DNA of 64,000 nt from Deltaproteobacteria bacterium (GTDB taxonomy: Bacteria > UBA10199 > JACPAL01 > JACOUP01), in assembly GCA_016177765.1 (NCBI GenBank), contig JACOUP010000008.1:65021-129020 (forward strand). Direction: 5' to 3'. The stretch's first letter is position 1, and each line of letters opens with the position of its first letter. The notes beneath the pieces were generated by a model, which saw only the letters and a program-made list of their open reading frames with translations, was not told the DNA's origin and did not search any database. A program made the translations under genes and the position numbers. This document shows, one piece after another, positions 304 through 43,260 of this stretch.

Positions 304-711
304 CTACTTAAAAAACCCTCTCTCTTCAAGGTAGCGCGGGTAAAGGGTATAGGCCGGTTTGATAATCGGCAAGAGTTTTAAGATCTTGGGGATCGGCCCC
401 TTGGCCGTGATTTCGCGGCGCGTCAAGGCGATCATCAGATTCACCTGCCCCAGCCAGAACCGGTGAGCGACATCCGCCTTCATACTCATCTCAACCTCCG
501 GTTTTCTTTCGGTATCATTGGCCAAAATGACAACCTGGGGACCCGAGAGATCAACCGTGAGGGAGGCCTCCGGTTCCTTATAATTGAAACGAAGGATCAG
601 CCTCGAGGCGAGAAGCTTTGGGCCGATCCCCGGGTCCTGACTCAAAAACTGAAAAAAACCGCTGAGCACCTCAATGAGTTTTGCACTGTTTTCAAAGGTA
701 GCCATTGTCAC
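304..711 (-). CDS. SCP2 sterol-carrier-like domain protein
   Basis: 135-aa ORF whose composition and pattern (…FLSQDPGIGPKLL…VDLSGP…) resemble the SCP-2/sterol-transfer fold. Family-level call only. Confidence 0.45.
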   Translation of the reverse strand: MTMATFENSAKLIEVLSGFFQFLSQDPGIGPKLLASRLILRFNYKEPEASLTVDLSGPQVVILANDTERKPEVEMSMKADVAHRFWLGQVNLMIALTRREITAKGPIPKILKLLPIIKPAYTLYPRYLEERGFFK

Positions 712-752
712 CCTCCCCTCTATCCCCTCCCATCAAGGGAGGGGAATTAAAA

Positions 753-2760: not shown

Positions 2761-4137
2761 CTATCTTGTAGCTAGTTTGAGTTTACTGGCAGGGTCTTCC
2801 ATCGGGACAGGATAATTTCCGGTAAAGCAGGCGTCGCAGAACCATTCTCCCGGATTTTTTTCAAACCAATAGAGCCCTTGCGGTGAAAGATACCCTAAAG
2901 AGTCGGCGTCGATGAACTTTCTAATCTCATCAACACTCTTCGAGGCGGCAATCAGTTCATCCTTGTCTGGCGTATCGATCCCATAATAGCAAGGCCCTGT
3001 CGTCGGCGGGGAGGAGATCCGCACATGAACTTCCTTGGCCCCGGCGTCACGGATCATCTTGACGATCTTGCGGGAGGTTGTCCCGCGGACGATGGAATCA
3101 TCCACCGCCACAACCCTCTTGCCTTTGAGAACCTCCCTGACCGGGTTCAATTTAATTTTGACGCCAAAGTTCCGGATCGATTCCTTCGGTTCAATAAATG
3201 TCCGGCCCACATAATGGTTCCGGATGAGTCCAAACTGAAACGGGATTCCGGACTCTTCCGCATAACCCAATGCCGCCTGAACGCCGCTGTCCGGTATCGG
3301 AATCACCACATCCGCTTTTACCGGATGCTCACGGGCCAGTTGTTGTCCGAACCCTTTCCGCATCTCATAGACATCCCGGCCAAAGATATGACTGTCCGGC
3401 CTTGCAAAATAGATGAATTCAAAAATGCACATCGCCTTTTTGCGGGGGATCACGAACGGTTTTTGGGAATGGGCACCATTCTTGTCAATCACGACAACCT
3501 CACCCGGTTCGATCTCCCGAACGAATTCCGCCTCAATCAGGTCGAGGGCACAGGTCTCACTGGCCACGACCCACGAATCCCCCTTCTGTCCCAAAACCAG
3601 TGGACGCCAGCCGTAAGGGTCCCGAACGGCGATGATCCTCGTTTCCGTCAAAAAGAGCATCGAATAGGCACCGCGAATCTGGCTTAAGGCATCGATGATC
3701 CGGTCCACGAGGGAATTCTTGGGGGACTGCGCAATCAGGTGGATCACCACCTCCGTATCCATGGTCGACTGAAAAATCGCTCCATGGGCCTCCAGTTCGG
3801 CACGAATCTTCTGGGCATTGACAAGATTCCCGTTGTGGGCAACCGCCAGCCCCCCCCGGGAATAATCGATGGCGATCGGCTGGCAATTTTTCATCATGCT
3901 CTCGCCGGTCGTTGAATAGCGGACATGCCCGATCGCATTCTTGCCGGGGAGTCTCTGCAGTGCCGCCTCGGAAAAGATATCGGCGACATGACCCATATCC
4001 TTGTGACTGTGAAGAAGTTGGCCGTCGGAGGAGATGATCCCGGCGCTCTCCTGACCGCGATGTTGAAGGGCATAAAGCCCCAGGTAGGCAAGATTTGCCG
4101 CTTCCGGATGGTTATAAATGCCGACTATGCCACACAT
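2761..4137 (-). CDS. purF: Amidophosphoribosyltransferase
   Basis: N-terminal MCGIVGI (Ntn Cys1), a GATase-2 domain plus a PRTase domain, 458 aa. Overlaps purL by 13 bp. Confidence 0.9.
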
Positions 4138-6374
4138 TTTACAAAACCCTCTTTCCAGGCCTTCTGCAATTCGGCGGTCGGAACAGTGATCCAGGGATCC
4201 AGCCTAAAAGGCCCCCGGGTCACAACACCCAATCTTTGGACAGGGCATTTCTTAAGCCTAGCCCATCGGAGAAACCGCTGCAAATTGTTTTCCCGAACAG
4301 TGACAACAATTCGGGAGGCCGCTTCACCGAATAAAAGTAGGTCGGGGCGTAAGGGCGAACGGCCGTTCGCCCGTACCTTAATATCGACCCCCCACAATTG
4401 AGGGCCTGAAATACAACACTCTGCCAAGGCCACAGCCAAGCCCCCTTCCGAACAATCATGGGCGGAACGGATCCACCCCTTTTGAATCCCTTGGAGGCAG
4501 GTCTCCTGGACCTTCTTTTCCCTCGCCAACTTTAAAGGGGGCGGCGTGCCTTGAACCTTGCCATGAACAAGACTCAAATACTCCGACCCCCCCAACTCCC
4601 CTTCAGCATTTCCCAACAGAAAAACGAGATCCCCTTCTTCCTTGAACCATTGGGTACAATGGGTTTTGACATCCTCCAGCAGGCCAACCATGCCGATTGT
4701 TGGTGTCGGATAAACAGATTGACCGAGACTTTCATTATAAAAGCTGACATTGCCGGAGACAATCGGTGTTCCCAAAAACAGGCAGGCCTCCGTAATCCCC
4801 CGGATTGCCTGCTCAAACTGCCAGAGGATTCCCGGATTTTCCGGGTTTCCAAAATTCAGGCAGTCGGTCACCGCCAACGGTTTTGCCCCGGAACAGACAA
4901 TATTACGGGCCGCCTCGGCCACCGCATGCATCGCCCCTTGATAAGGGTCAAGGTAGCAATAGGTACTGTTGCAGTCGGTGGCCATCGCCACCCCCTTGGG
5001 TGAATCACCCCTTGGTGAATCACCCTTGAGCGAATCGCTCCTTTTTGTTCCTTTGATCCGAAGAACCGCGGCATCGCTTCCCGGCAAGATCACCGTATCA
5101 GTCCCGATCATATGATCGTACTGATGATAAACCCACTCCTTGTTGGCGATATTGGGAGAGGAGAGAAGCCGGAGCAGGACAGGCGTCATCTCCGGCGGCA
5201 TGGAAATAGAATCAAGACTCAAGGAATTGACTTCGCCCAAATAAGAGGGTTTCTCCCTGGACCGTTCATAGCAGGGGGCTTCTTCAGCGATCGGGTGCGC
5301 CGGGATCTCTCCCACCAGTTCCCTTTCATTGAAAATCCGCACCGTACTCCCTCGAACTACCTTGCCGATAGCGGAAACATCCAGACCCCACTTTTTGAAA
5401 ATCTTCTCCACCCTTTTTTCAGCTCCTTTTTTGGCCACAAACAGCATCCGCTCCTGAGATTCAGAAAGCATCACCTCATAAGGGGTCATCCCCACTTCAC
5501 GGAGCGGGACTTTCGAGAGGTCCAGATCGATCCCGACATTCCCCTTGGAGGCCATTTCAAAGGAGGAACAGGTGAGGCCGGCGGCCCCCATATCCTGAAT
5601 CCCCACCAGGTCCTTCGTCTGAAAAAGTTCCAGACAGGCCTCCATTAGCCGCTTTTCGGTAAAAGGGTCTCCGACTTGAACCGTCGGCCTTTTTTCTTCC
5701 GATTTTTCGTCAAAGACATCACTGGCCATCGTCGCCCCATGGATCCCATCCCGTCCTGTCTTGGAACCAACGTAAAAGACCGGATTCCCCACCCCTGCCG
5801 CCTTGGCCTTGAAGATCCTGTTTTTCTTCACGAGTCCAACGCACATCGCATTCACAAGGTTATTCCCGTTATAGGAAGAATGAAAAGAGACCTCGCCACC
5901 CACAGTCGGAATCCCCATGCAGTTCCCATAGCCGGCGATCCCGGCCACCACCCCTTTGACCAGATATTTTGTCTTGGGGTGATTGGGGGAACCAAACCGA
6001 AGGGAGTTCAAGAGGGCGATCGGCCTGGCCCCCATCGTAAAGACATCCCGAAGGATACCGCCGACACCGGTCGCCGCCCCCTGGAACGGTTCAATAAAAG
6101 AAGGATGGTTATGGCTCTCCATCTTGAAGACAAGACCCAGACCATCCCCGATATCTACGATACCGGCGTTTTCTCCCGGTCCGCAGAGGACCTGTTTCCC
6201 TTTTGTCGGCAGTTTTTTTAAGAAAACACGGGAGCTCTTGTAGGAACAGTGCTCGCTCCACATGACCGAAAAAATTCCCAGCTCCAAAAGATTCGGTTCC
6301 CGTCCCAGAATGGTGAGAATTTTCTGGTACTCTTCCGATGAGAGGCCATGTTGCTGGACAGTTTTAGTATCCAT
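4125..6374 (-). CDS. purL: Phosphoribosylformylglycinamidine synthase subunit II
   Basis: 749 aa with AIR-synthase-related tandem domains (…HNHPS…, GxGG motifs). Carries the in-frame repeat insert [12 protein letters not shown]. Confidence 0.9.
4988..5040. repeat. Palindromic repeat copy, ~3.5 units, in purL
   Basis: cccttGGGTGaatCACCCcttGGTGaatCACCCttgaGCGaatCGCtc, in-frame, encoding [12 protein letters not shown]. Confidence 0.85.
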
Positions 6375-6419
6375 ATCTATATTCCCTCACCCTCCGAGAA
6401 TTCTTCTCTGCCTCAGCTG

Positions 6420-6443
6420 CCCTCTCCCACGATGGGGAGAGGG
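6420..6443. repeat. Perfect hairpin CCCTCTCCC-acgatg-GGGAGAGGG flanking the DUF559 cassette (purL-proximal side)
   Basis: 9-bp stem, 6-nt loop. Partner copy at 6831-6854. Confidence 0.7.
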
Positions 6444-6455
6444 CTCCAATCAAAC

Positions 6456-6818
6456 TTACATCTTGGAGCAAGTCGTCTTAATCTTTTCAAGAACTCTGGG
6501 CAGATTTGTTTCCACTTCACTATTTAAAATTCGTAAAATACGGAACCCTCCGTTTCCTAAAATTTTATCTCTCTCTTCATCGTATATTTTTTGATCTTCT
6601 TTGAGGTGATGCCCTCCATCTAATTCAACAATCAGTCTCTTTTCAACGCAACAAAAGTCAGCTATATACCCCCTTAGAGGTAGTTGACGTTTAAACTTGA
6701 GCCCTTTAAGACCACGATTACGGAGCTCGTCCCAGAGCAAACATTCGGCCCGTGTCATGTCATGTCTCAAAATTCGAGCCTTGACAACCTCCTCTCTTCT
6801 TTCAACACGATTGACCAT
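6456..6818 (-). CDS. DUF559 (Vsr-like endonuclease domain) protein; low-GC inserted cassette
   Basis: 120 aa (…CLLWDELRNRGLKGLKFKRQ…GYIADF…VELDGGHH…) typical of DUF559. The region is markedly AT-rich relative to its neighbours and is flanked by hairpins. Confidence 0.7.
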   Translation of the reverse strand: MVNRVERREEVVKARILRHDMTRAECLLWDELRNRGLKGLKFKRQLPLRGYIADFCCVEKRLIVELDGGHHLKEDQKIYDEERDKILGNGGFRILRILNSEVETNLPRVLEKIKTTCSKM

Positions 6819-6830
6819 GCCTTAATCCAA

Positions 6831-6880
6831 CCCTCTCCTCTTCGTGGGAGAGGGTGTCTCTCCGCCTCAGGCGGAGAGAC
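6831..6880. repeat. Two adjacent hairpins on the purQ-proximal side of the DUF559 cassette: CCCTCTCC-tcttcgtg-GGAGAGGG followed by GTCTCTCCGCC-tca-GGCGGAGAGAC (11-bp stem)
   Basis: The first hairpin shares its arms with the 6420-6443 hairpin. The second could also act as an intrinsic-terminator-like structure after purQ, though no U-tract follows. Confidence 0.65.
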
Positions 6881-6889
6881 GGGTGAGGG

Positions 6890-7639
6890 TTACAAAATCA
6901 CCGATTCAAACAACCGCCTCCCATCCACATTTCCCAGAAGCGGCTCGGCACACCGTTCCGGATGCGGCATCATCCCCAAGATATTCCCCTTTTCATTAAT
7001 AATGCCAGCAATTGAATCCAAAGAACCGTTCGGGTTCTCCCCTTCATAACGAAAGACAACCCTTTCTTCCCCTTTCAACCTTTTCAAGGTTTCCGGATCG
7101 CAAAAATAGTTCCCATCCCCATGGGCGATCGGCATCTTGACCACCACCCTCCCCCCCACCCCCATCCGCCCTCTCTGTCCCTTCGGGACATCTCCCCCGA
7201 TTGGCGGGGGAGTTCCCCCTCGAGGGAGGGGGATTAAGGGGGAGGGGGTGTAGAGTTTTGTAAACCGGGTATTCGTATTCTCCACCCTGAGGGAGACTGT
7301 CTTGCAAATAAATTGGAGGTTGGTGTTCCGCATCAGCACGCCGGGGAGAAGGCCCGCCTCGGTCAAGATTTGGAAACCGTTGCAGATCCCAAGAACAAGT
7401 CCACCCCTCCTGGCAAACGACAAGACCTCTTTCATGATCGGCGAAAAACGGGCAATGGCGCCGGTCCTCAAGTAATCCCCATAGGAGAAACCACCGGGGA
7501 GGATCAGACAATCCACTTTGGGGAGCCTGGTCTCCTTGTGCCATATAAAGGAGGCTGGCTGTTCCAGAAGGTCATGAATGGCATGGAAGCAGTCGTGATC
7601 ACAATTGGAACCGGGAAAGACGACGACACCAAATTTCAT
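6890..7639 (-). CDS. purQ: Phosphoribosylformylglycinamidine synthase subunit I (glutaminase); contains a ~30-aa in-frame palindromic insertion
   Basis: [17 protein letters not shown]…, catalytic Cys GICNGFQ, and HGEG-like PIAHGDGNY. An extra segment [36 protein letters not shown] lies between the conserved FTK and MPIAHG blocks. Confidence 0.85.
7141..7250. repeat. GC-rich cluster of mini-palindromes inserted in-frame within purQ
   Basis: Contains GTCCCttcGGGAC, CCCCCGattgGCGGGGG, CCCTCGAGGG (a perfect 10-bp palindrome) and AGGGGGattaAGGGGGAGGGGG. This is a different family from the 15-bp repeat. Confidence 0.6.
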
Positions 7640-7875
7640 ACGATCTCAAACCTGTATGATTCAATCACCGTATTGGCGAGCAGTTTTTCACACATTTCTT
7701 TTACCCGCCGCTCCGCTTCTTCTTTATCTTCGGTGGTCAACTTCAGCTCGACATATTTGCCGATCCGGACATCCCGGACCTCCTCAAAGCGGAGGCTCGC
7801 CAGCGCCTGACAAACCGCCTTCCCCTGGGGGTCCAACACGCCTGATTTTAGAGTGATATAGATTTTTGCCGTCAT
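7636..7875 (-). CDS. purS: Phosphoribosylformylglycinamidine synthase subunit PurS
   Basis: 79 aa in a conserved position between purB and purQ, with 4-bp overlaps on both sides. Confidence 0.8.
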
Positions 7876-9167: not shown

Positions 9168-9271
9168 GGAGGCCCGCATCCCTAACAAAAAAAGGGGGTT
9201 GGTGCAAGGATGAAAAAAAGAAAGCAACTCTCTGAAAAGACTGACGAAAATATGTTCACAAAGGAGTCCTA

Positions 9272-10366
9272 ATGGCCCATGATACAATACCCCCGCCGGC
9301 AGGTGAAGCACCCTTGGGTGAAGCACCCTTCCCTTATATTGTTGTCGAACCGGATGCGGCCGATGGTCTGGAAGATCAGCTGGACGGCTCCGATATTCCG
9401 ATTAGCGAGGCGATTGAGGGGGATAATTACAAAATGGATCGGAAGACAACCCGGGCCTTTCAAGACGACGAGGAGGCGTCCGCCTATGAATCCGATCTTT
9501 TTCCCAACGACCGGGCGATTACCCTGACGGAACTCCGGCGCGCCTTTTACGCCACCTACGGGACTCAGGAATCCCGGGCCGTGGCTGAGCGCGTCTTCGC
9601 CCAGATGAAACAAGAGCTTGGTGATACAGTCAGTAAAGATGAAATTGGCCGTTTTCAACAGATCCTGACCGATCAGTCTGCTCATCTCGACGCCGGTGGA
9701 ATCATCATTGATAACGATCTTGATAAAGGGGGAAGACTCGCGATCTCCGTAAAAAGACAGGGTCTCACCAAAGAGGATATTCAGAGACGGATCATCCCTT
9801 ATGACACCTGGAAATATATGAAAGACCTCGAGTTGACTTTTGACGTCCCGGTACCCGAAGAGCCGAATGCCTATTATGAATTTACCATCACCCATCCGGG
9901 CGGCGTCGCCGGAAAGGTCTTTGGGATCTTTCCCGCCGTAACCAAGATCACCCTGGCGGGGGGAAACGGTCCTCTCGTTGCCAAGTGGGAGATGGTTCCT
10001 CATGACACGGCAAGAGGATTAGTGGATCAGTATAAGGGGAGGTTGACAGAAGTGATGCGGGAGGCCCGTTTAAAAGACAATCCGGATGAATACGCAAACC
10101 AGTTTAAGGAAGAACTGGAGTCCGTCCGGAGTGTTCAGGGAAGTGTCCGCTACGACCCCCAGACAGGGGTTCTGACCTATGAACAAAACGTGAAGGTCTC
10201 CTGGTCCCCCCCTTCCGACAGTTTCGTCATTGAGCCTCTCTTAACCGTCGCCCTTCATTATGCCGGTGACCCACGGGCCAAGAAAAGAACCAAAATCCCC
10301 TGCTGGATGAGTGAAGATGACGGCCCAATGAAAAAGAAATACCGCTACGAGCCGGCCCTGAAATAA
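9272..10366 (+). CDS. Hypothetical protein; N-terminus carries the repeat-encoded GEAPLGEAP
   Basis: 364-aa ORF with a good SD (aaggag, 7 nt upstream). No recognisable family. Confidence 0.5.
   Translation: MAHDTIPPPAGEAPLGEAPFPYIVVEPDAADGLEDQLDGSDIPISEAIEGDNYKMDRKTTRAFQDDEEASAYESDLFPNDRAITLTELRRAFYATYGTQESRAVAERVFAQMKQELGDTVSKDEIGRFQQILTDQSAHLDAGGIIIDNDLDKGGRLAISVKRQGLTKEDIQRRIIPYDTWKYMKDLELTFDVPVPEEPNAYYEFTITHPGGVAGKVFGIFPAVTKITLAGGNGPLVAKWEMVPHDTARGLVDQYKGRLTEVMREARLKDNPDEYANQFKEELESVRSVQGSVRYDPQTGVLTYEQNVKVSWSPPSDSFVIEPLLTVALHYAGDPRAKKRTKIPCWMSEDDGPMKKKYRYEPALK
9302..9330. repeat. Palindromic repeat copy, 2 units (GGTGaagCACCCttGGGTGaagCACCC)
   Basis: In-frame at the N-terminus of 9272..10366, encoding GEAPLGEAP. 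Opposite orientation relative to the coding strand. Confidence 0.8.
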
Positions 10367-24656: not shown

Positions 24657-25112
24657 ATGATAGGAGCCGTTGTCGTGACTCATGGCAACATCGGGACGGA
24701 AATGATCCGGGCCGCCGAATCGATCGTGAAAGAGAAACTCCCGTTTCTTGGCGTCGCCCTGGAACATCACGAATCAGTCCCTACGATGAAAAGCAAGATC
24801 CGGGAGGCGATCGCTTCCTGTCATTCCCCTCAAGGGGTTCTTCTCCTCTCCGATCTGTTCGGAGGGACTCCCTGCAATCTCTGTCTCTCCTTTCTGAAAG
24901 AAGTAAAGGTGGAGGTGGTCACCGGGGTCAATCTCCCGATGCTGATCAAACTCGCCCATTATCGGGAAAACAGGCCGCTGAAAGAAGTGGCCCGTTTCAT
25001 CAGAGAATATGGCAAAAAAAACATCACCTTGGCAAGACAGGTCCTCAAGGGTGATCCACCCAGGGGTGAGTCACCCAAGGGACAAGGGTCCGGTCTATCG
25101 CGATCAGGCTAG
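24657..25112 (+). CDS. PTS EIIA component, mannose/fructose (EIIA-Man) family, with a repeat-encoded C-terminal tail
   Basis: MIGAVVVTHGNIGTEMIRAAE is a typical EIIA-Man N-terminus. The C-terminus KGDPPRGESPKGQGSG is encoded by the repeat. Confidence 0.75.
   Translation: MIGAVVVTHGNIGTEMIRAAESIVKEKLPFLGVALEHHESVPTMKSKIREAIASCHSPQGVLLLSDLFGGTPCNLCLSFLKEVKVEVVTGVNLPMLIKLAHYRENRPLKEVARFIREYGKKNITLARQVLKGDPPRGESPKGQGSGLSRSG
25046..25081. repeat. Palindromic repeat copy, ~2.5 units, at EIIA C-terminus / ptsH start
   Basis: caaGGGTGatcCACCCagGGGTGagtCACCCaaGGG encodes KGDPPRGESPKG in the EIIA frame. It contains both candidate GTG starts of ptsH in the +1 frame. Confidence 0.85.
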
Positions 25113-35661: not shown

Positions 35662-38168
35662 TCCCTTCCCTTCCTAAAGAGCTTCTGGATCAAGCCGCTT
35701 CCCCACGGGAGGCAGGGCACTTTTTTTCGGCCTGGTTCACAGCCTACCGTCAGGAAAGGGGAAATCCGCCTGATTTAAAACATCCCTCGGGCTCAAAAAT
35801 CCTTTCCCTCTTTGGGAATTCGGCATGGCTTTCCCAATTCCTCGGCAATCACCCCCTTCTCTACGATTCCCTCGGTTCCTCCCCCTTCCTCACCAAAAGA
35901 AAAGGCCTGGAAGACCACCGGGAGGACCTTCGACAAGTCCCCAAGGGTGATTCACCCAAGGGTGTGCCACCCAAGGGCGATTCGCCCACGGGCGACTTTC
36001 ATTCAAACCTCCTCCTCTATAAAAACAGCGAGCTTTTAAGGATCGCCCTCCGTTCTCTTGAAATCGGCTCTTCTGAAGAAGAAATCGGTCACGAACTTTC
36101 CGACCTGGCCCAAGCGATTGTCGAAAAGGCCCATCAGGTGCTGGGAGCCATTCATCAACGGGAATTGGGTCTTCGAAAAATTCCCCTCTGTTGCCTCGGT
36201 CTTGGAAAACTGGGAGGCCAGGACCTCAATTTCAGCTCCGACATTGATCTCCTCTACCTCTATGGTGACGATGAAGAACGAGGCTCTGAACTCTCCACCC
36301 ACGAATACTTTGTGAAGCGGGTTGAAAGAGAACGGCATTTCCTGAGCGACAAGACCGATTCTTTCCTCTATCGCGTCGATCTGGATCTTCGTCCGGAAGG
36401 GAAAAAAGGGACGCTTGTCAATTCACTCCCCGCCCTCGAAGAGTATTACGAAACCTGGGGGGCGGAATGGGAGAGAATCGCCCTCATCAAGGGACGATGC
36501 CTCGCCGGTGACAAGCCACTGGCCGAAAAATTCATCAAGATGGCCCACCCCTTTGTCTGGCGGAAAAGCTTCGAAGACTCCGCCTTGAACCAGATCAAGA
36601 CAATCAAGGAGAAAAGTGATGCCCTTTTGAGAAAAAAAGTCGTTCCCACTTTTCATGTCAAACTCGGGAGCGGCGGAATCCGGGAAGTCGAACTATTCGT
36701 CTGGATTTTTCAGTTGATCTTTGGCGGCCGCCACCCGCAACTCCAGGAAGCCCATACCCTTCAAGCCCTTCGCCAGCTCAAGGCCCTCTCCCTCATCCCC
36801 GCCAGGGAGACCAAACAGTTGGAAAAGGCCTATCTTTTCCTGCGGCGGATAGAAAACCGACTGCAAATGCAAGAGAACCAGCAAATTCATCAGATTCCGG
36901 AATCAGCCGAGGGACAGGAGGCCCTCGCCCGTCTCCTCGGTTACCCCCAGGAAACACGAAAAGCGGCCCGCAAGGCTTTCTTGGAAGACCTCGAACAAAC
37001 ACGGACCTATGTTCAAAAACATTTCGCCAGTCTCTTTGAAAGAGGACCTAAAAAACAACGCTCCTGGAAGGAAGAGCAGACGCTCAGGCTCCAGTCAGAA
37101 TTGGAGCCGCTACCGACTGTTGAAGAAAAATTCGACAGCCTGCGCCTCTTTAAAAAAGAGGTGACCGGTGAAATCATTCAGGAAGACCAATCGGGAAAAC
37201 TTTCTTTTACGAACTTTCTTGTCAGAAATACAGAACTGGCCGAGGTGATCCTCCAGGAGGCCTATCAGATCGCCCTTGCCGAAATGGCCGCCCGCTATGG
37301 TCCCCTGAAGGGAGAGGGACTCGCCATTATCGGCATGGGAAAGCTGGGGGGAAGAGAGTTGACTTACCGGTCGGACCTGGACCTCCAATTCCTCTATGAC
37401 GAAAATTCCTACAACAAAACCCTGTCCCTTCAGGAATATTTTGCAAAACTCGCTCAGAGGGTCCTCTCTTGTCTGACAATCATCACCGAACAGGGATGGG
37501 CCTACAAGATCGACACCGCCCTCCGTCCTTCGGGAAGCGCCGGTGTCCTTGTCGGTTCACTGGCCTCTTTTCTGGAATACCACGAAAAAGAGTCAAAAAC
37601 CTGGGAAAAACAGGCCCTTCTCAAGGCGAGACCGGTTGCCGGCGACCCTTTTCTTTGTGACAAGGCCGCCGTTTTTCTGAAAGGGATCCCGTTCCGCTTT
37701 CCCCCCTCCCCTTCCCTCCTCCAGGATATCGCCTCTCTCCGGACCCGGATGGAAAGAGAGATTGCCAGAGAGACCGAGTCATCCTGGAATTTGAAGACAG
37801 GATACGGCGGTATTGTGGATATTGAATTTCTGACACAAGGCCTGCAACTCCTTCATGGACGGGATTTTAGTGAATTGGCGGAGCCCAATACGCTCCTGGC
37901 CCTTGAAAAACTCTCAGGACTCCAATTTCTCACTCCCCAGGAGACCAATGACTTGAAGGAAGGGTACCAATTCCTCCGCCGTCTGGAAACCGCACTCCGG
38001 CTCCAATTGGAGAGCCCCACCGATTGTCTTGAATTAACCGCTCCCTGGCTCCCCACGATGGCAACAGCCCTCAATTTTTCTTCAGCAACGGCACTTGTCG
38101 ACGCGGCCCGCTCCTGGAGGAAAAAAATTCGCGGCCTTTATGAAGGGGTGTTTGGAAGTCGGGGCTAG
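35658..38168 (+). CDS. glnE: Bifunctional glutamine synthetase adenylyltransferase/adenylyl-removing enzyme
   Basis: Two nucleotidyltransferase modules (GLGKLGGQDLNFSSDIDLLYLY and IGMGKLGGRELTYRSDLDLQFLY). The N-terminal region contains 3.5 tandem repeat units. ATGA overlap with the helicase stop. Confidence 0.85.
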   Translation: MIPSLPKELLDQAASPREAGHFFSAWFTAYRQERGNPPDLKHPSGSKILSLFGNSAWLSQFLGNHPLLYDSLGSSPFLTKRKGLEDHREDLRQVPKGDSPKGVPPKGDSPTGDFHSNLLLYKNSELLRIALRSLEIGSSEEEIGHELSDLAQAIVEKAHQVLGAIHQRELGLRKIPLCCLGLGKLGGQDLNFSSDIDLLYLYGDDEERGSELSTHEYFVKRVERERHFLSDKTDSFLYRVDLDLRPEGKKGTLVNSLPALEEYYETWGAEWERIALIKGRCLAGDKPLAEKFIKMAHPFVWRKSFEDSALNQIKTIKEKSDALLRKKVVPTFHVKLGSGGIREVELFVWIFQLIFGGRHPQLQEAHTLQALRQLKALSLIPARETKQLEKAYLFLRRIENRLQMQENQQIHQIPESAEGQEALARLLGYPQETRKAARKAFLEDLEQTRTYVQKHFASLFERGPKKQRSWKEEQTLRLQSELEPLPTVEEKFDSLRLFKKEVTGEIIQEDQSGKLSFTNFLVRNTELAEVILQEAYQIALAEMAARYGPLKGEGLAIIGMGKLGGRELTYRSDLDLQFLYDENSYNKTLSLQEYFAKLAQRVLSCLTIITEQGWAYKIDTALRPSGSAGVLVGSLASFLEYHEKESKTWEKQALLKARPVAGDPFLCDKAAVFLKGIPFRFPPSPSLLQDIASLRTRMEREIARETESSWNLKTGYGGIVDIEFLTQGLQLLHGRDFSELAEPNTLLALEKLSGLQFLTPQETNDLKEGYQFLRRLETALRLQLESPTDCLELTAPWLPTMATALNFSSATALVDAARSWRKKIRGLYEGVFGSRG
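35939..35994. repeat. Palindromic repeat copy, ~3.5 units, in glnE
   Basis: ccaaGGGTGattCACCCaaGGGTGtgcCACCCaaGGGCGattCGCCCacGGGCG encodes PKGDSPKGVPPKGDSPTGD. Confidence 0.9.
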
Positions 38169-42019: not shown

Positions 42020-43260
42020 AACCCAATATCCTTTCTGTAGCAAACCCCCTCCCACCGAATTTTGGAGATGGCACCATAAGCCCTCTGGCGCGCCGCCGCA
42101 AGATCTTTTGCAAGGGCGGTCACTCCAAGCACCCTCCCCCCGGAGGTCACGATTTCTCCCCGGTTTTGTTCGGTGCCGGCATGAAAGACAACCACCTCCG
42201 GTCCTGTCAAATCAAGGCCGGAGATCGGTTTTCCTCTCTCATAGGGACCGGGATAGCCCCCGGAAGCCATCACCACACAGACTGAGGTTTCTTCCTTCCA
42301 CCTCAGTTGTCGCCCCGACAATTTTCCCGAGAGAGAGGCCTCCACCAGATCAACAAGGTCATCCTCCAAGCGGGTCAAGATTACTTGAGCCTCCGGATCA
42401 CCAAAACGGACGTTGTATTCCAGGACAGTCGGCCCCTTTTCGGTCAGCATCAACCCGGCATAAAGAACCCCACGGAAGGAACGCCCCTCTTGTTCGAGTC
42501 CCTTCAGGGTTGGACCGATAATCCCCTCCATCACCCTGGCCTGCATCTTCTGGTCCAGGTAAGGGGATGGGCTAATCGCCCCCATTCCCCCGGTGTTGGG
42601 CCCTTGATCGGCATCCATCAATCGCTTGTGGTCTTTGGCGGTCGCCAGAGGAATCACCTGCTGGCCGCTGGCGAGGACCATAAACGAGGTCTCAATCCCC
42701 TTGAGACAATCCTCAACAATAACCTTCCGTCCTGCCACCCCTAACCCTTTTTGAATAAAAAGAAAATCGAGCGCCTCAAACGCCTCCCTCTTGGTCATGC
42801 AGACAAAGACCCCCTTGCCGGCGGCCAGACCATCGGCCTTGATCACAATAGGGACCCCTTCTCTTTCAACATACCTTCGCGCCGAGACAGGCTCCTCAAA
42901 AACCTGAAACCGGGCCGTCGGGATCTTGTGCCGCATCAGGAATTCCTTGGTGAAAACCTTGCTCCCCTCCAGAATCGCCGCCTCGGGTTTTGGGCCAAAA
43001 ACAGGAATTTTTTCCCTTTCAAAAAGGGGGACTATCCCTTCACAGAGAGGGGTTTCAGGACCAACAACGGTCAAGTCTATCTTTTCCTTTTTGGCAAATT
43101 CAAGGAGTCCCTTTAAATCTTCAGTTTTGATGGCGACTCGCCTGCCCTCCATACCGGCATTCCCTGGAGCCACATAAACCTTCTTGACCCTTGGACTCTG
43201 GGCTATTTTCCAGACCAGGGCATGCTCCCGACCTCCTGAACCAACAACAAGAACTTTCAT
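42016..43260 (-). CDS. purD: Phosphoribosylamine--glycine ligase
   Basis: MKVLVVGSGGREHALVWKIAQS… with an ATP-grasp domain. Confidence 0.9.
   Translation of the reverse strand: MKVLVVGSGGREHALVWKIAQSPRVKKVYVAPGNAGMEGRRVAIKTEDLKGLLEFAKKEKIDLTVVGPETPLCEGIVPLFEREKIPVFGPKPEAAILEGSKVFTKEFLMRHKIPTARFQVFEEPVSARRYVEREGVPIVIKADGLAAGKGVFVCMTKREAFEALDFLFIQKGLGVAGRKVIVEDCLKGIETSFMVLASGQQVIPLATAKDHKRLMDADQGPNTGGMGAISPSPYLDQKMQARVMEGIIGPTLKGLEQEGRSFRGVLYAGLMLTEKGPTVLEYNVRFGDPEAQVILTRLEDDLVDLVEASLSGKLSGRQLRWKEETSVCVVMASGGYPGPYERGKPISGLDLTGPEVVVFHAGTEQNRGEIVTSGGRVLGVTALAKDLAAARQRAYGAISKIRWEGVCYRKDIGL

Follow-up and report, generated by a model that had tools for sequence, protein, structure and literature searches.

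The window analyzed here is a 64-kb stretch of contig JACOUP010000008.1 from an uncultured 'Deltaproteobacteria' metagenome-assembled genome (MAG), and it includes the gene for PurQ, the glutaminase subunit of FGAM synthase (6890..7639, minus strand, 249 aa), which carries within its reading frame a palindromic element of 103 nt (7147..7249). We consider it likely that this segment belongs to the palindromic, G/C-rich DNA repeats known as BoxC, PIT or 'intrastrand triplex motif'; it would be non-autonomous, tolerated as a passenger and later inverted or trimmed in place. The element is an intragenic, hairpin-in-loop form of this known kind of repeat, new as a variant, and it behaves like the RPEs in Rickettsia. 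In-frame insertion is unusual for the BoxC/PIT family, but it is a known kind of event. We propose that the repeat came to lie in purQ at the turn between two beta-strands and that it persists there as a tolerated passenger rather than for any function of the protein. What is conserved in the element is its nucleic-acid pairing, and the site would have been remodelled from lineage to lineage, either by an in-place flip of the core between the terminal inverted arms or by shortening or loss of the element; such remodelling agrees with the local instability that has been reported for the BoxC/PIT family. Descriptions of these repeats in E. coli place them strictly between genes, and neither a function nor a mobiliser is assigned to the family; the purQ case would extend the Rickettsia-type selfish palindromes of housekeeping proteins to a very widespread and different repeat family. 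The purQ site also provides a natural series (empty, short, full and flipped) in which it is the pairing that is kept within a coding region, at a cost to the peptide.

The element has a G+C content of 71%, against 52-57% for the whole window, and is a doublet of two three-block motifs that lie in inverted orientation inside C-rich and G-rich terminal arms. The C-rich arm is CCCTCCCCCCCACCCCC (7147..7163, plus strand) and the G-rich arm is GGGGGAGGGGG (7238..7248, plus strand). The first 9 nt of the former, CCCTCCCCC at 7147-7155, pair perfectly (100%) with GGGGGAGGG at 7238-7246 and make up the outer stem, or terminal inverted repeat. In motif 1, the pyrimidine and purine arms are those of hairpin 2, TCTCCCCCG-ATTGG-CGGGGGAGT (7191..7213, plus strand), an 8-9 bp hairpin whose outer pairs co-vary among copies. 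The third block of this motif, CCCTCTCT (7169..7176, plus strand), mirrors the 5' arm of hairpin 2 at 7 of 8 positions, and the second loop between them is filled by hairpin 1, GTCCC-TTC-GGGAC (7177..7189, plus strand). This third block is the Hoogsteen pyrimidine block when read on the plus strand and the mirror purine block when read on the minus (coding) strand; motif 1 follows the same logic as motif 2 on the opposite strand. Motif 2, TCCCCCTC-GAGG-GAGGGGGA-TTA-AGGGGGAG (7214..7244, plus strand), is a perfect three-block motif with 8/8 Watson-Crick pairs, 8/8 mirror positions and loops of 4 and 3 nt; it includes a CTCGAG palindrome and runs into the G-rich terminal arm. Whether treated as RNA or as DNA, the element is predicted to fold into an outer stem around three hairpins, and this fold is better than those of all 200 dinucleotide shuffles (z = -3.0 for RNA and -3.25 for DNA). 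We had considered a tRNA-like cloverleaf as an explanation of the outer stem and three hairpins, and dropped it because the three-block motifs account for the arms. No stop codon occurs in four of the six frames of the element.

A first-pass annotation of this DNA had described the segment, at 7141-7250, as a run of G/C mini-palindromes that encodes 40 residues. The peptide and every quoted mini-palindrome are present (GTCCCttcGGGAC at 7177-7189, CCCCCGattggCGGGGG at 7194-7210, CCCTCGAGGG at 7217-7226 and the G-runs at 7237-7248), and its coordinates are correct to about 6 nt. It had also held that the spacer is unusually long for PurQ and that the insertion preserves the frame. Both points were borne out by an alignment with the 18 best relatives and by the spacers that could be parsed in 81 of the top 120. 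The spacer between the conserved Tyr and MPIAH is exactly 7 residues in 67 of the 81 parsed relatives and 38 residues in the window's protein, which therefore has 31 extra codons, S133-G163, at 7151-7243. The relative P0003 and most other PurQ proteins have a site of normal length. The NCBIfam PurQ model NF002957 matches the protein with 330 bits, the match being broken into two stretches at residue 139, and the nucleophile Cys86 and the H226-P-E228 motif are conserved in the alignment of relatives. Since the length of the insert is a multiple of three and there is no stop in the frame used, the insert is presumably translated.

An assembly or binning artefact, such as a chimeric join or a collapsed repeat, would be one explanation of such a segment, because G/C-rich palindromes are hard to assemble. 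Two independent short-read Logan assemblies from other sequencing runs do break inside the element, their contigs starting at window positions 7214 (L031) and 7147 (L032). However, both show 0 mismatches to the window at purQ as far as they reach, the frame is intact with conserved flanks, and homologous inserts occur in four other independent assemblies. Because the independent assemblies reproduce the sequence, we rejected an artefact, which we regard as barely credible, and take the purQ segment to be real though hard to assemble. As a separate observation, the way in which these two contigs end suggests that such repeats may systematically fragment assemblies of the same lineage.

We also modelled the window's PurQ with AlphaFold2, using an alignment of 57 sequences (mean predicted local distance difference test score, pLDDT, 85.8). 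The core has pLDDT values above 90, and the model superimposes on Thermotoga maritima PurQ in the PurLQS complex (3d54_D) with a target-normalised TM-score of 0.88. Residues ~131-164 have pLDDT values of 43-57 and no secondary structure, and this loop sits between the strands 110-119 and 165-173; the corresponding turn of the T. maritima protein is a short ..EKGEK.. segment. The first-pass annotation had asked whether the insert lies in a surface loop; in the model it forms a loop of low confidence that connects two strands, while the rest of the fold is confident. The insert would thus be a surface loop rich in Pro, Gly and Arg and probably disordered, with the glutaminase fold and the active-site residues left intact.

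The kind of repeat to which we assign the element was described by Holder et al. (Nucleic Acids Res 2015, PMC4666352) as G/C-rich 'intrastrand triplex motifs', earlier called BoxC and PIT. As cited there, the BoxC reports date from the 1990s and PIT (potential intrastrand triplex) from Maher and co-workers in 2000. According to the same paper, triplex motifs are abundant and highly conserved in many bacteria, are frequently paired in inverted orientation, carry TTA or CCG as their second loop, and formed a triplex in vitro. The E. coli consensus, TM_ECO, is CCCTCNCCC N3-6 GGGNGAGGG N3 GGGNGAGGG. In K-12 the motifs are always intergenic; they show no association with known mobile elements and are linked to locally rearranged regions (PMC4666352). 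The BoxC/PIT criteria are a homopyrimidine block, a complementary homopurine block and a mirror purine block, with stems of 6-15 nt, at most one mismatch, and, in the ITxF search, loops of 1-6 nt. The three blocks are found in motif 2 (8/8 Watson-Crick, 8/8 mirror) and in motif 1 (7/8 in the third block). Covariation of the third block with the duplex, such that the base triads are kept, is found across at least 10 haplotypes. The loops of motif 2 (4 and 3 nt) lie within the 1-6 nt range, and the second loop of motif 1 has 14 nt and forms hairpin 1. The literal TM_ECO consensus was not found in the insert, whose blocks are TCCCCCTC/GAGGGGGA/AGGGGGAG and CTCCCCCG/CGGGGGAG; therefore, the purQ repeat is of the same kind but not of the E. 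coli subfamily.

The purQ repeat thus shares with BoxC/PIT/TM_ECO the three G/C-rich blocks, the CCCTC/GAGGG-type cores, the pairing of inverted motifs, the TTA second loop (in motif 2), the occurrence of its core in several copies per genome elsewhere, the conservation across distant taxa and the location in locally variable regions. It differs in several respects. TM_ECO is intergenic in E. coli K-12, whereas the purQ repeat lies inside an open reading frame (ORF) and in frame; the published loops are of 1-6 nt, whereas motif 1 has a 13-nt hairpin in its second loop. In addition, the purQ blocks are of the CTCCCCC type rather than the literal CCCTCNCCC consensus, the doublet has extra C-rich and G-rich terminal arms unlike TM_ECO, and the host is an uncultured 'Deltaproteobacteria' MAG rather than E. 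coli.

Searches for the pattern of hairpins 1 and 2 showed that the module is not confined to purQ. It was found nearly verbatim at 21 places in a species-representative genome collection, and a relaxed hairpin pattern was found at only 3 metagenome places. One of the 21 is the purQ of a related MAG (L022, on the same contig as the relative L001 discussed below), another is intergenic and beside a tRNA in a different Deltaproteobacteria MAG, and the remaining places are in Dehalococcoidia/Chloroflexota and Clostridia MAGs, with four exact matches in one Dehalococcoidia MAG and two in another. The flanks of the copies, which the search pattern did not constrain, are also conserved, with the consensus gCCCCCTCT-GTCCCnnnGGGAC-A-TCTCCCCCGnnnnnCGGGGGAGA, and a covariance model built from the copies picked up additional diverged ones in the fetched loci. 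The long-second-loop variant of motif 1 recurs as well, in ~35 copies elsewhere, at 6831-6888 of the window and in a DUF559 locus described below (L034). Most of the other copies are intergenic or just upstream of genes, and their orientation to genes follows no consistent rule across the family. In most copies, 5-6 of the 6 frames are open through the two-hairpin core. The module lies in frame within a MobA-like NTP-transferase domain (L028, Ga0307430_1002378, 9228-9275), where the Pfam match PF12804 spans the module (E = 8e-39) and the module peptide, SPPRSGGDVPEGQGG, uses the same frame as the window's purQ insert peptide. A module within a MaoC-like protein (dehydratase) of a Dehalococcoidia MAG (L021, JAJEJC010000001.1, 2505-2553) is probably also in frame, the Pfam match there being below the gathering score. 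We also looked for other proteins with the insert peptide; a word-indexed search gave no candidate and an exhaustive HMMER search gave none at E <= 0.001, results of little weight given a short, low-complexity query.

Across ~39 copies, the tract upstream of the hairpins mirrors the hairpin-2 arm in at least 10 haplotypes, for example CTCT|TCTC|GAGA, CTTT|TTTC|GAAA, TTTT|TTTT|AAAA, TCCT|TCCT|AGGA-type and CTCC|CCTC|GAGG. The mirror match holds at 260 of 273 positions, compared with 236 +/- 3 after shuffling of tracts and arms between copies, and none of 5000 shuffles reached 260. With a single representative per haplotype, 2 of 5000 shuffles reached the observed value. Changes on both sides were found in 11 cells for the Watson-Crick pairs of hairpin 2 and in 10 cells for the parallel letter pairs between tract and purine arm (0/500 shuffles in either case).

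The same base-pair covariation of hairpin 2, together with a very stable predicted fold (about -75 kcal/mol) that outdoes all shuffles, would also be expected if the segment were an RNA element of the purS-purQ-purL transcript, acting in ribosome pausing, in PurQ:PurL stoichiometry or as a processing or stability site; REP-type repeats, moreover, are often transcribed and affect mRNA (PMC3733652). We consider this explanation unlikely, because the orientation of the element relative to the mRNA differs between lineages and the family copies keep no consistent orientation to genes at all. In addition, no Rfam family matched at threshold, and the published tests of PIT, as reported in PMC4666352, found no promoter or terminator activity.

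The history of the site was examined by comparing the DNA of five purQ relatives, L001 (protein P0002), L002 (P0004), L003, L004 and L005 (P0003). L005, whose PurQ has 219 aa and is ~71-80% identical depending on the alignment, has a site of normal length. L001 and L002 have an element of nearly equal length at the same codon, in which the order of the three hairpins is reversed. Their 76-nt core matches the window at 75-79% in reverse complement and at 53% forward, which equals the palindrome baseline. By contrast with the core, the junctions (CCCCCTCCCCC-TTA on one side and GGGGG-T-GGGGG..AGGG on the other) keep their orientation relative to purQ in the window, L001 and L002. L003 and L004 have shorter versions that retain the CTCGAG hairpin, and other purQ relatives have 3-12 extra residues at the site, so that spacers range from 10 to 38 residues among close relatives. 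The arms of hairpin 2 are CCT/AGG, CTT/AAG and CTC/GAG across L001, L002 and the window, with pairing kept and residues changed (HPP..R versus HLP..K). Given that these compensatory changes keep the pairing while the residues change, we infer that maintenance acts on the nucleic acid, through selection or intrastrand templated repair, and not on the peptide.

The simplest account of these sequences would be a single ancient insertion; one lineage would then have inverted the core between the terminal inverted arms, and others would have trimmed or lost the element. P0003 reads YTLHPLVKM where P0002 reads YAPSPL...VKM, and from this difference P0003 may itself be a deletion derivative rather than a pristine empty site. 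As a side observation, the same locus, L005, has a perfect three-block motif, CCCCTCTCCC-TTCAT-CCCTCTCCCC-AA-GGGGAGAGGG (444-484, minus strand, 10/10 mirror), between purS and purQ; that is, just upstream of a purQ without an intragenic element.

These comparisons also bear on whether the insert is a lineage-specific, functional PurQ loop, enlarged through hairpin expansion or duplication on the spot and kept for a role of the protein, such as contact with PurL or PurS or regulation; it would then not belong to any dispersed repeat family. Its occurrence at always the same codon, in several related lineages and at several lengths, and the lack of a second full copy in the window, are in keeping with such a loop. 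The first-pass annotation had named a loop of the same length, conserved at the amino-acid level in close relatives, as the sign of this. What the relatives show is a reverse-complemented core and differing, unconserved peptides, together with compensatory stem changes at the DNA level that alter residues. Furthermore, the loop is predicted to be disordered, P0003 does without the insert despite being ~71-80% identical, and in other phyla the module is found at sites with no relation to purQ, most of them intergenic. A functional loop thus seems rather improbable to us.

The two orientations of the core raise another possibility, a programmed segment whose active inversion would let a population alternate between two variants of the PurQ loop. 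The core lies between terminal inverted arms and is seen both ways round among relatives, both orientations are open reading frames, and short-read contigs end inside the element. However, any G/C-rich palindrome can be expected to break contigs, the two assemblies of the window's own organism that reach into the element match its orientation with no mismatches, and the lineages with the two orientations share only 70-77% identity, as a single old event would allow. No recombinase was seen adjoining the element, although no search aimed at recombinases was made. A programmed switch is therefore, in our opinion, highly unlikely.

Several points weigh against the assignment to a BoxC/PIT-type passenger. 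Motif 1 is outside the published search criteria, owing to its 14-nt hairpin in the second loop and one mirror mismatch, and the pyrimidine-type version of the predicted triplex would need acidic pH. No target-site duplication was visible at the purQ junctions in comparison with the empty-length site of L005, so that a transposition-type arrival is not supported. As judged from the sequences, the comparison of flanks only weakly discriminates between in-place inversion and independent insertion in both orientations. Searches of the 64-kb window with two pieces of 20-21 nt, allowing three mismatches, and with short-word blastn gave no second full-length copy of the element, and its multi-copy status in its own organism rests on three shorter relatives within the window.

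We compared the purQ repeat with other palindromic repeats that can enter genes. The RPEs (Ogata et al. 2000 and 2002; Claverie and Ogata 2003; as summarised in PMC10969869 and PMC3733652) are likewise palindromic, in frame in protein genes and compatible with the fold of the host protein, and they resemble the purQ repeat, as far as the latter is presumably translated too, in being translated within unrelated housekeeping genes and occurring in intergenic DNA as members of the same family. Going by their descriptions, RPEs are ~100-150 bp long, occur in A+T-rich Rickettsia genomes, and have a conserved peptide and one orientation. The purQ repeat, unlike them, is 71% G+C, is built of three blocks, occurs in both orientations, and conserves pairing without a conserved peptide. 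Because of its 71% G+C, homology to the RPE families is unlikely.

REPs and REPINs are similar in being short imperfect palindromes, in forming inverted doublets as a larger unit and in lying occasionally in frame within known genes; some REPs are also intragenic with the frame kept (Di Nocera et al. 2013, PMC3733652). The GTAG/CGTC tag of REPs was not found: there is no CGTC in 7147-7249, and the sole GTAG (7251-7254) belongs to the native codons for Tyr130/Thr131, beyond the element's end. REPs also lack a mirror third block. The element resembles a MITE (review PMC10969869) in its size of ~100 bp, in having terminal inverted repeats and no coding capacity of its own, and in the possibility of in-frame fusions. 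Unlike a MITE, it has no evident target-site duplication and no related insertion sequence is known, and its interior consists of hairpins and mirror blocks rather than a deleted transposon.

A further lead comes from the neighbourhood of the gene. In the window, purS lies upstream of purQ (7636..7875) and purL downstream (4125..6374). Between purQ and purL is an ORF of 120 aa (6456..6818, minus strand) for a DUF559/YcjD-like PD-(D/E)xK nuclease, which is bracketed by inverted three-block motifs and is a candidate protein partner of the repeats. YcjD-like proteins are predicted Vsr-related PD-(D/E)xK nucleases (PMC1189080). The unit of gene and motifs (6385-6888) sits 2 nt downstream of the purQ stop codon. 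The DUF559 ORF has no counterpart in the relatives L001 and L005, where purL follows directly after purQ, and from this arrangement the ORF with its two flanking motifs (6375-6889) looks like a second insertion in the pur operon. Seven further contigs, from the same organism in other runs, carry the DUF559 gene with the same neighbouring genes.

We examined homologous DUF559 loci that had been picked regardless of repeats, namely L033-L035 from assembly and metagenome contigs and L036-L043 from plasmid-collection records. All 12 of the DUF559 loci examined, which span Deinococcota, Alpha- and Betaproteobacteria, Cyanobacteria and metagenomes, show such three-block motifs, or pyrimidine/purine hairpins that closely resemble them, within ~200 nt of the gene, many of them on both sides. 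This includes 3 of 3 in L033-L035, where in L034 an inverted pair of hairpin-in-loop motifs brackets the gene, and 8 of 8 in L036-L043 (Deinococcus, Azospirillum, Sinorhizobium, Neisseria, Synechocystis, Picosynechococcus, Sphingomonas and Pseudanabaena), most on both sides. In the low-G+C cyanobacterial loci L041 and L043, only versions with blocks of 5-6 nt occur, which are below the block length of our scanner and were found by eye. The Sinorhizobium locus has an inverted pair of exactly the purQ-type module, CCCCCTCT-hairpin-A-TCTCCCCC..GGGGGAGA. As for the background, there are 3-5 motif clusters in each of the 50-kb stretches around three DUF559 genes and in the 64-kb window, and one or two of these clusters are no more than 44 nt from the DUF559 gene. 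The ycjD gene of E. coli K-12 (1351407-1351760) is 168 nt away from TM_ECO no. 9 (1351204-1351239; L030, 1351040-1351760). The association of DUF559 with the motifs is itself well supported.

What this association means is a more tentative matter. It is possible, though we hold it to be somewhat less probable than its alternatives taken together, that the DUF559/YcjD-like Vsr-fold nucleases are as yet unrecognised protein partners of the BoxC/PIT/triplex repeats, in a system like REP-RAYT but built on a PD-(D/E)xK nuclease. The DUF559 gene with its two inverted motifs (6385-6888) would then be an autonomous unit, and motif doublets such as the purQ insert would be non-autonomous derivatives that can insert into genes without breaking the frame. 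Either the repeats may be mobilised by the nuclease, or they may serve as homing sites for the DUF559 gene. The setting is similar to that of RAYT genes between REPs, in that a small nuclease-type gene is flanked by repeats, with DUF559 in place of RAYT; no RAYT gene was seen, although no search aimed at one was made. However, RAYT is a Y1 (HUH) transposase, whereas the repeat-flanked gene here is a Vsr-like PD-(D/E)xK nuclease. No DUF559 gene was seen in the fetched loci that carry the two-hairpin module, and thus the repeats far outnumber the gene. We found no link of DUF559 or ycjD to BoxC/PIT repeats in the literature searched, which is incomplete. If true, such a partnership would provide a testable candidate for what spreads BoxC/PIT repeats and for what YcjD-like nucleases do. 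At the Neisseria gonorrhoeae locus (L039, NZ_CP119142.1), we also noticed a tandem array of paired three-block motifs with a period of ~281 nt (1987-2687), which starts ~190 nt past the DUF559 homologue on its downstream side; although listed as a plasmid, the record has 2.17 Mb and is probably a chromosome.

Within the window, we found 5 strict three-block motifs, all within three places, compared with 0 in each of 20 Markov shuffles. The other relatives of the element in the window are all intergenic. One, between purQ and the DUF559 gene (6831..6888, plus strand), reads CCCTCTCC, a loop, GGAGAGGG, a 26-nt loop holding a hairpin, and GGGTGAGG. Another, just downstream of the DUF559 ORF (6385..6443, minus strand), is inverted relative to it. 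Both have the same blocks as TM_ECO (CCCTCTCC / GGAGAGGG / GGGTGAGG) but a long second loop. The third lies in a 41-nt spacer between two minus-strand genes (712..745, minus strand) and reads TCCCCTCC, a loop, GGAGGGGA, TAG and AGGGGAGG; the covariance model of the two-hairpin core gave a weak match there, at 712-746. Two further candidates were rejected: a pair of G-runs at 42045/42130, considered as a second copy, is ordinary sequence, and a motif match at 37145-37173 is an A+T-rich chance match within a large ORF.

Rfam gave no match above threshold in the window, where Whalefall-1, DUF3800-XI and microRNA models appeared below threshold, and it gave nothing apart from a tRNA in four loci that carry the two-hairpin module. 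The sub-threshold Whalefall-1 matches are at 6829-6890 (plus strand, 25.6 bits) and 7212-7247 (plus strand, 18.7 bits), the gathering score being 37. Whalefall-1, an 'RNA motif' derived from metagenomes, may overlap with the three-block kind of repeat.

The window also contains a 15-nt palindromic unit, GGGTGAnTCACCCAA, which forms short tandem runs at ~20 other places (e.g. 2338-2369, 25046-25084 and 35942-35995) as well as in purL, where the runs at 4995-5041 are in frame and encode repeats. The first-pass annotation had regarded the purQ insert as unrelated to this 15-bp family, and had suggested on that ground that the genome carries more than one class of intragenic, frame-preserving insertion. 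On comparison, we found no sequence relation between the purQ element and GGGTGAnTCACCCAA. Since the 15-nt family lies in frame in purL and is unrelated to the element in purQ, the genome has at least two such classes of repeat.

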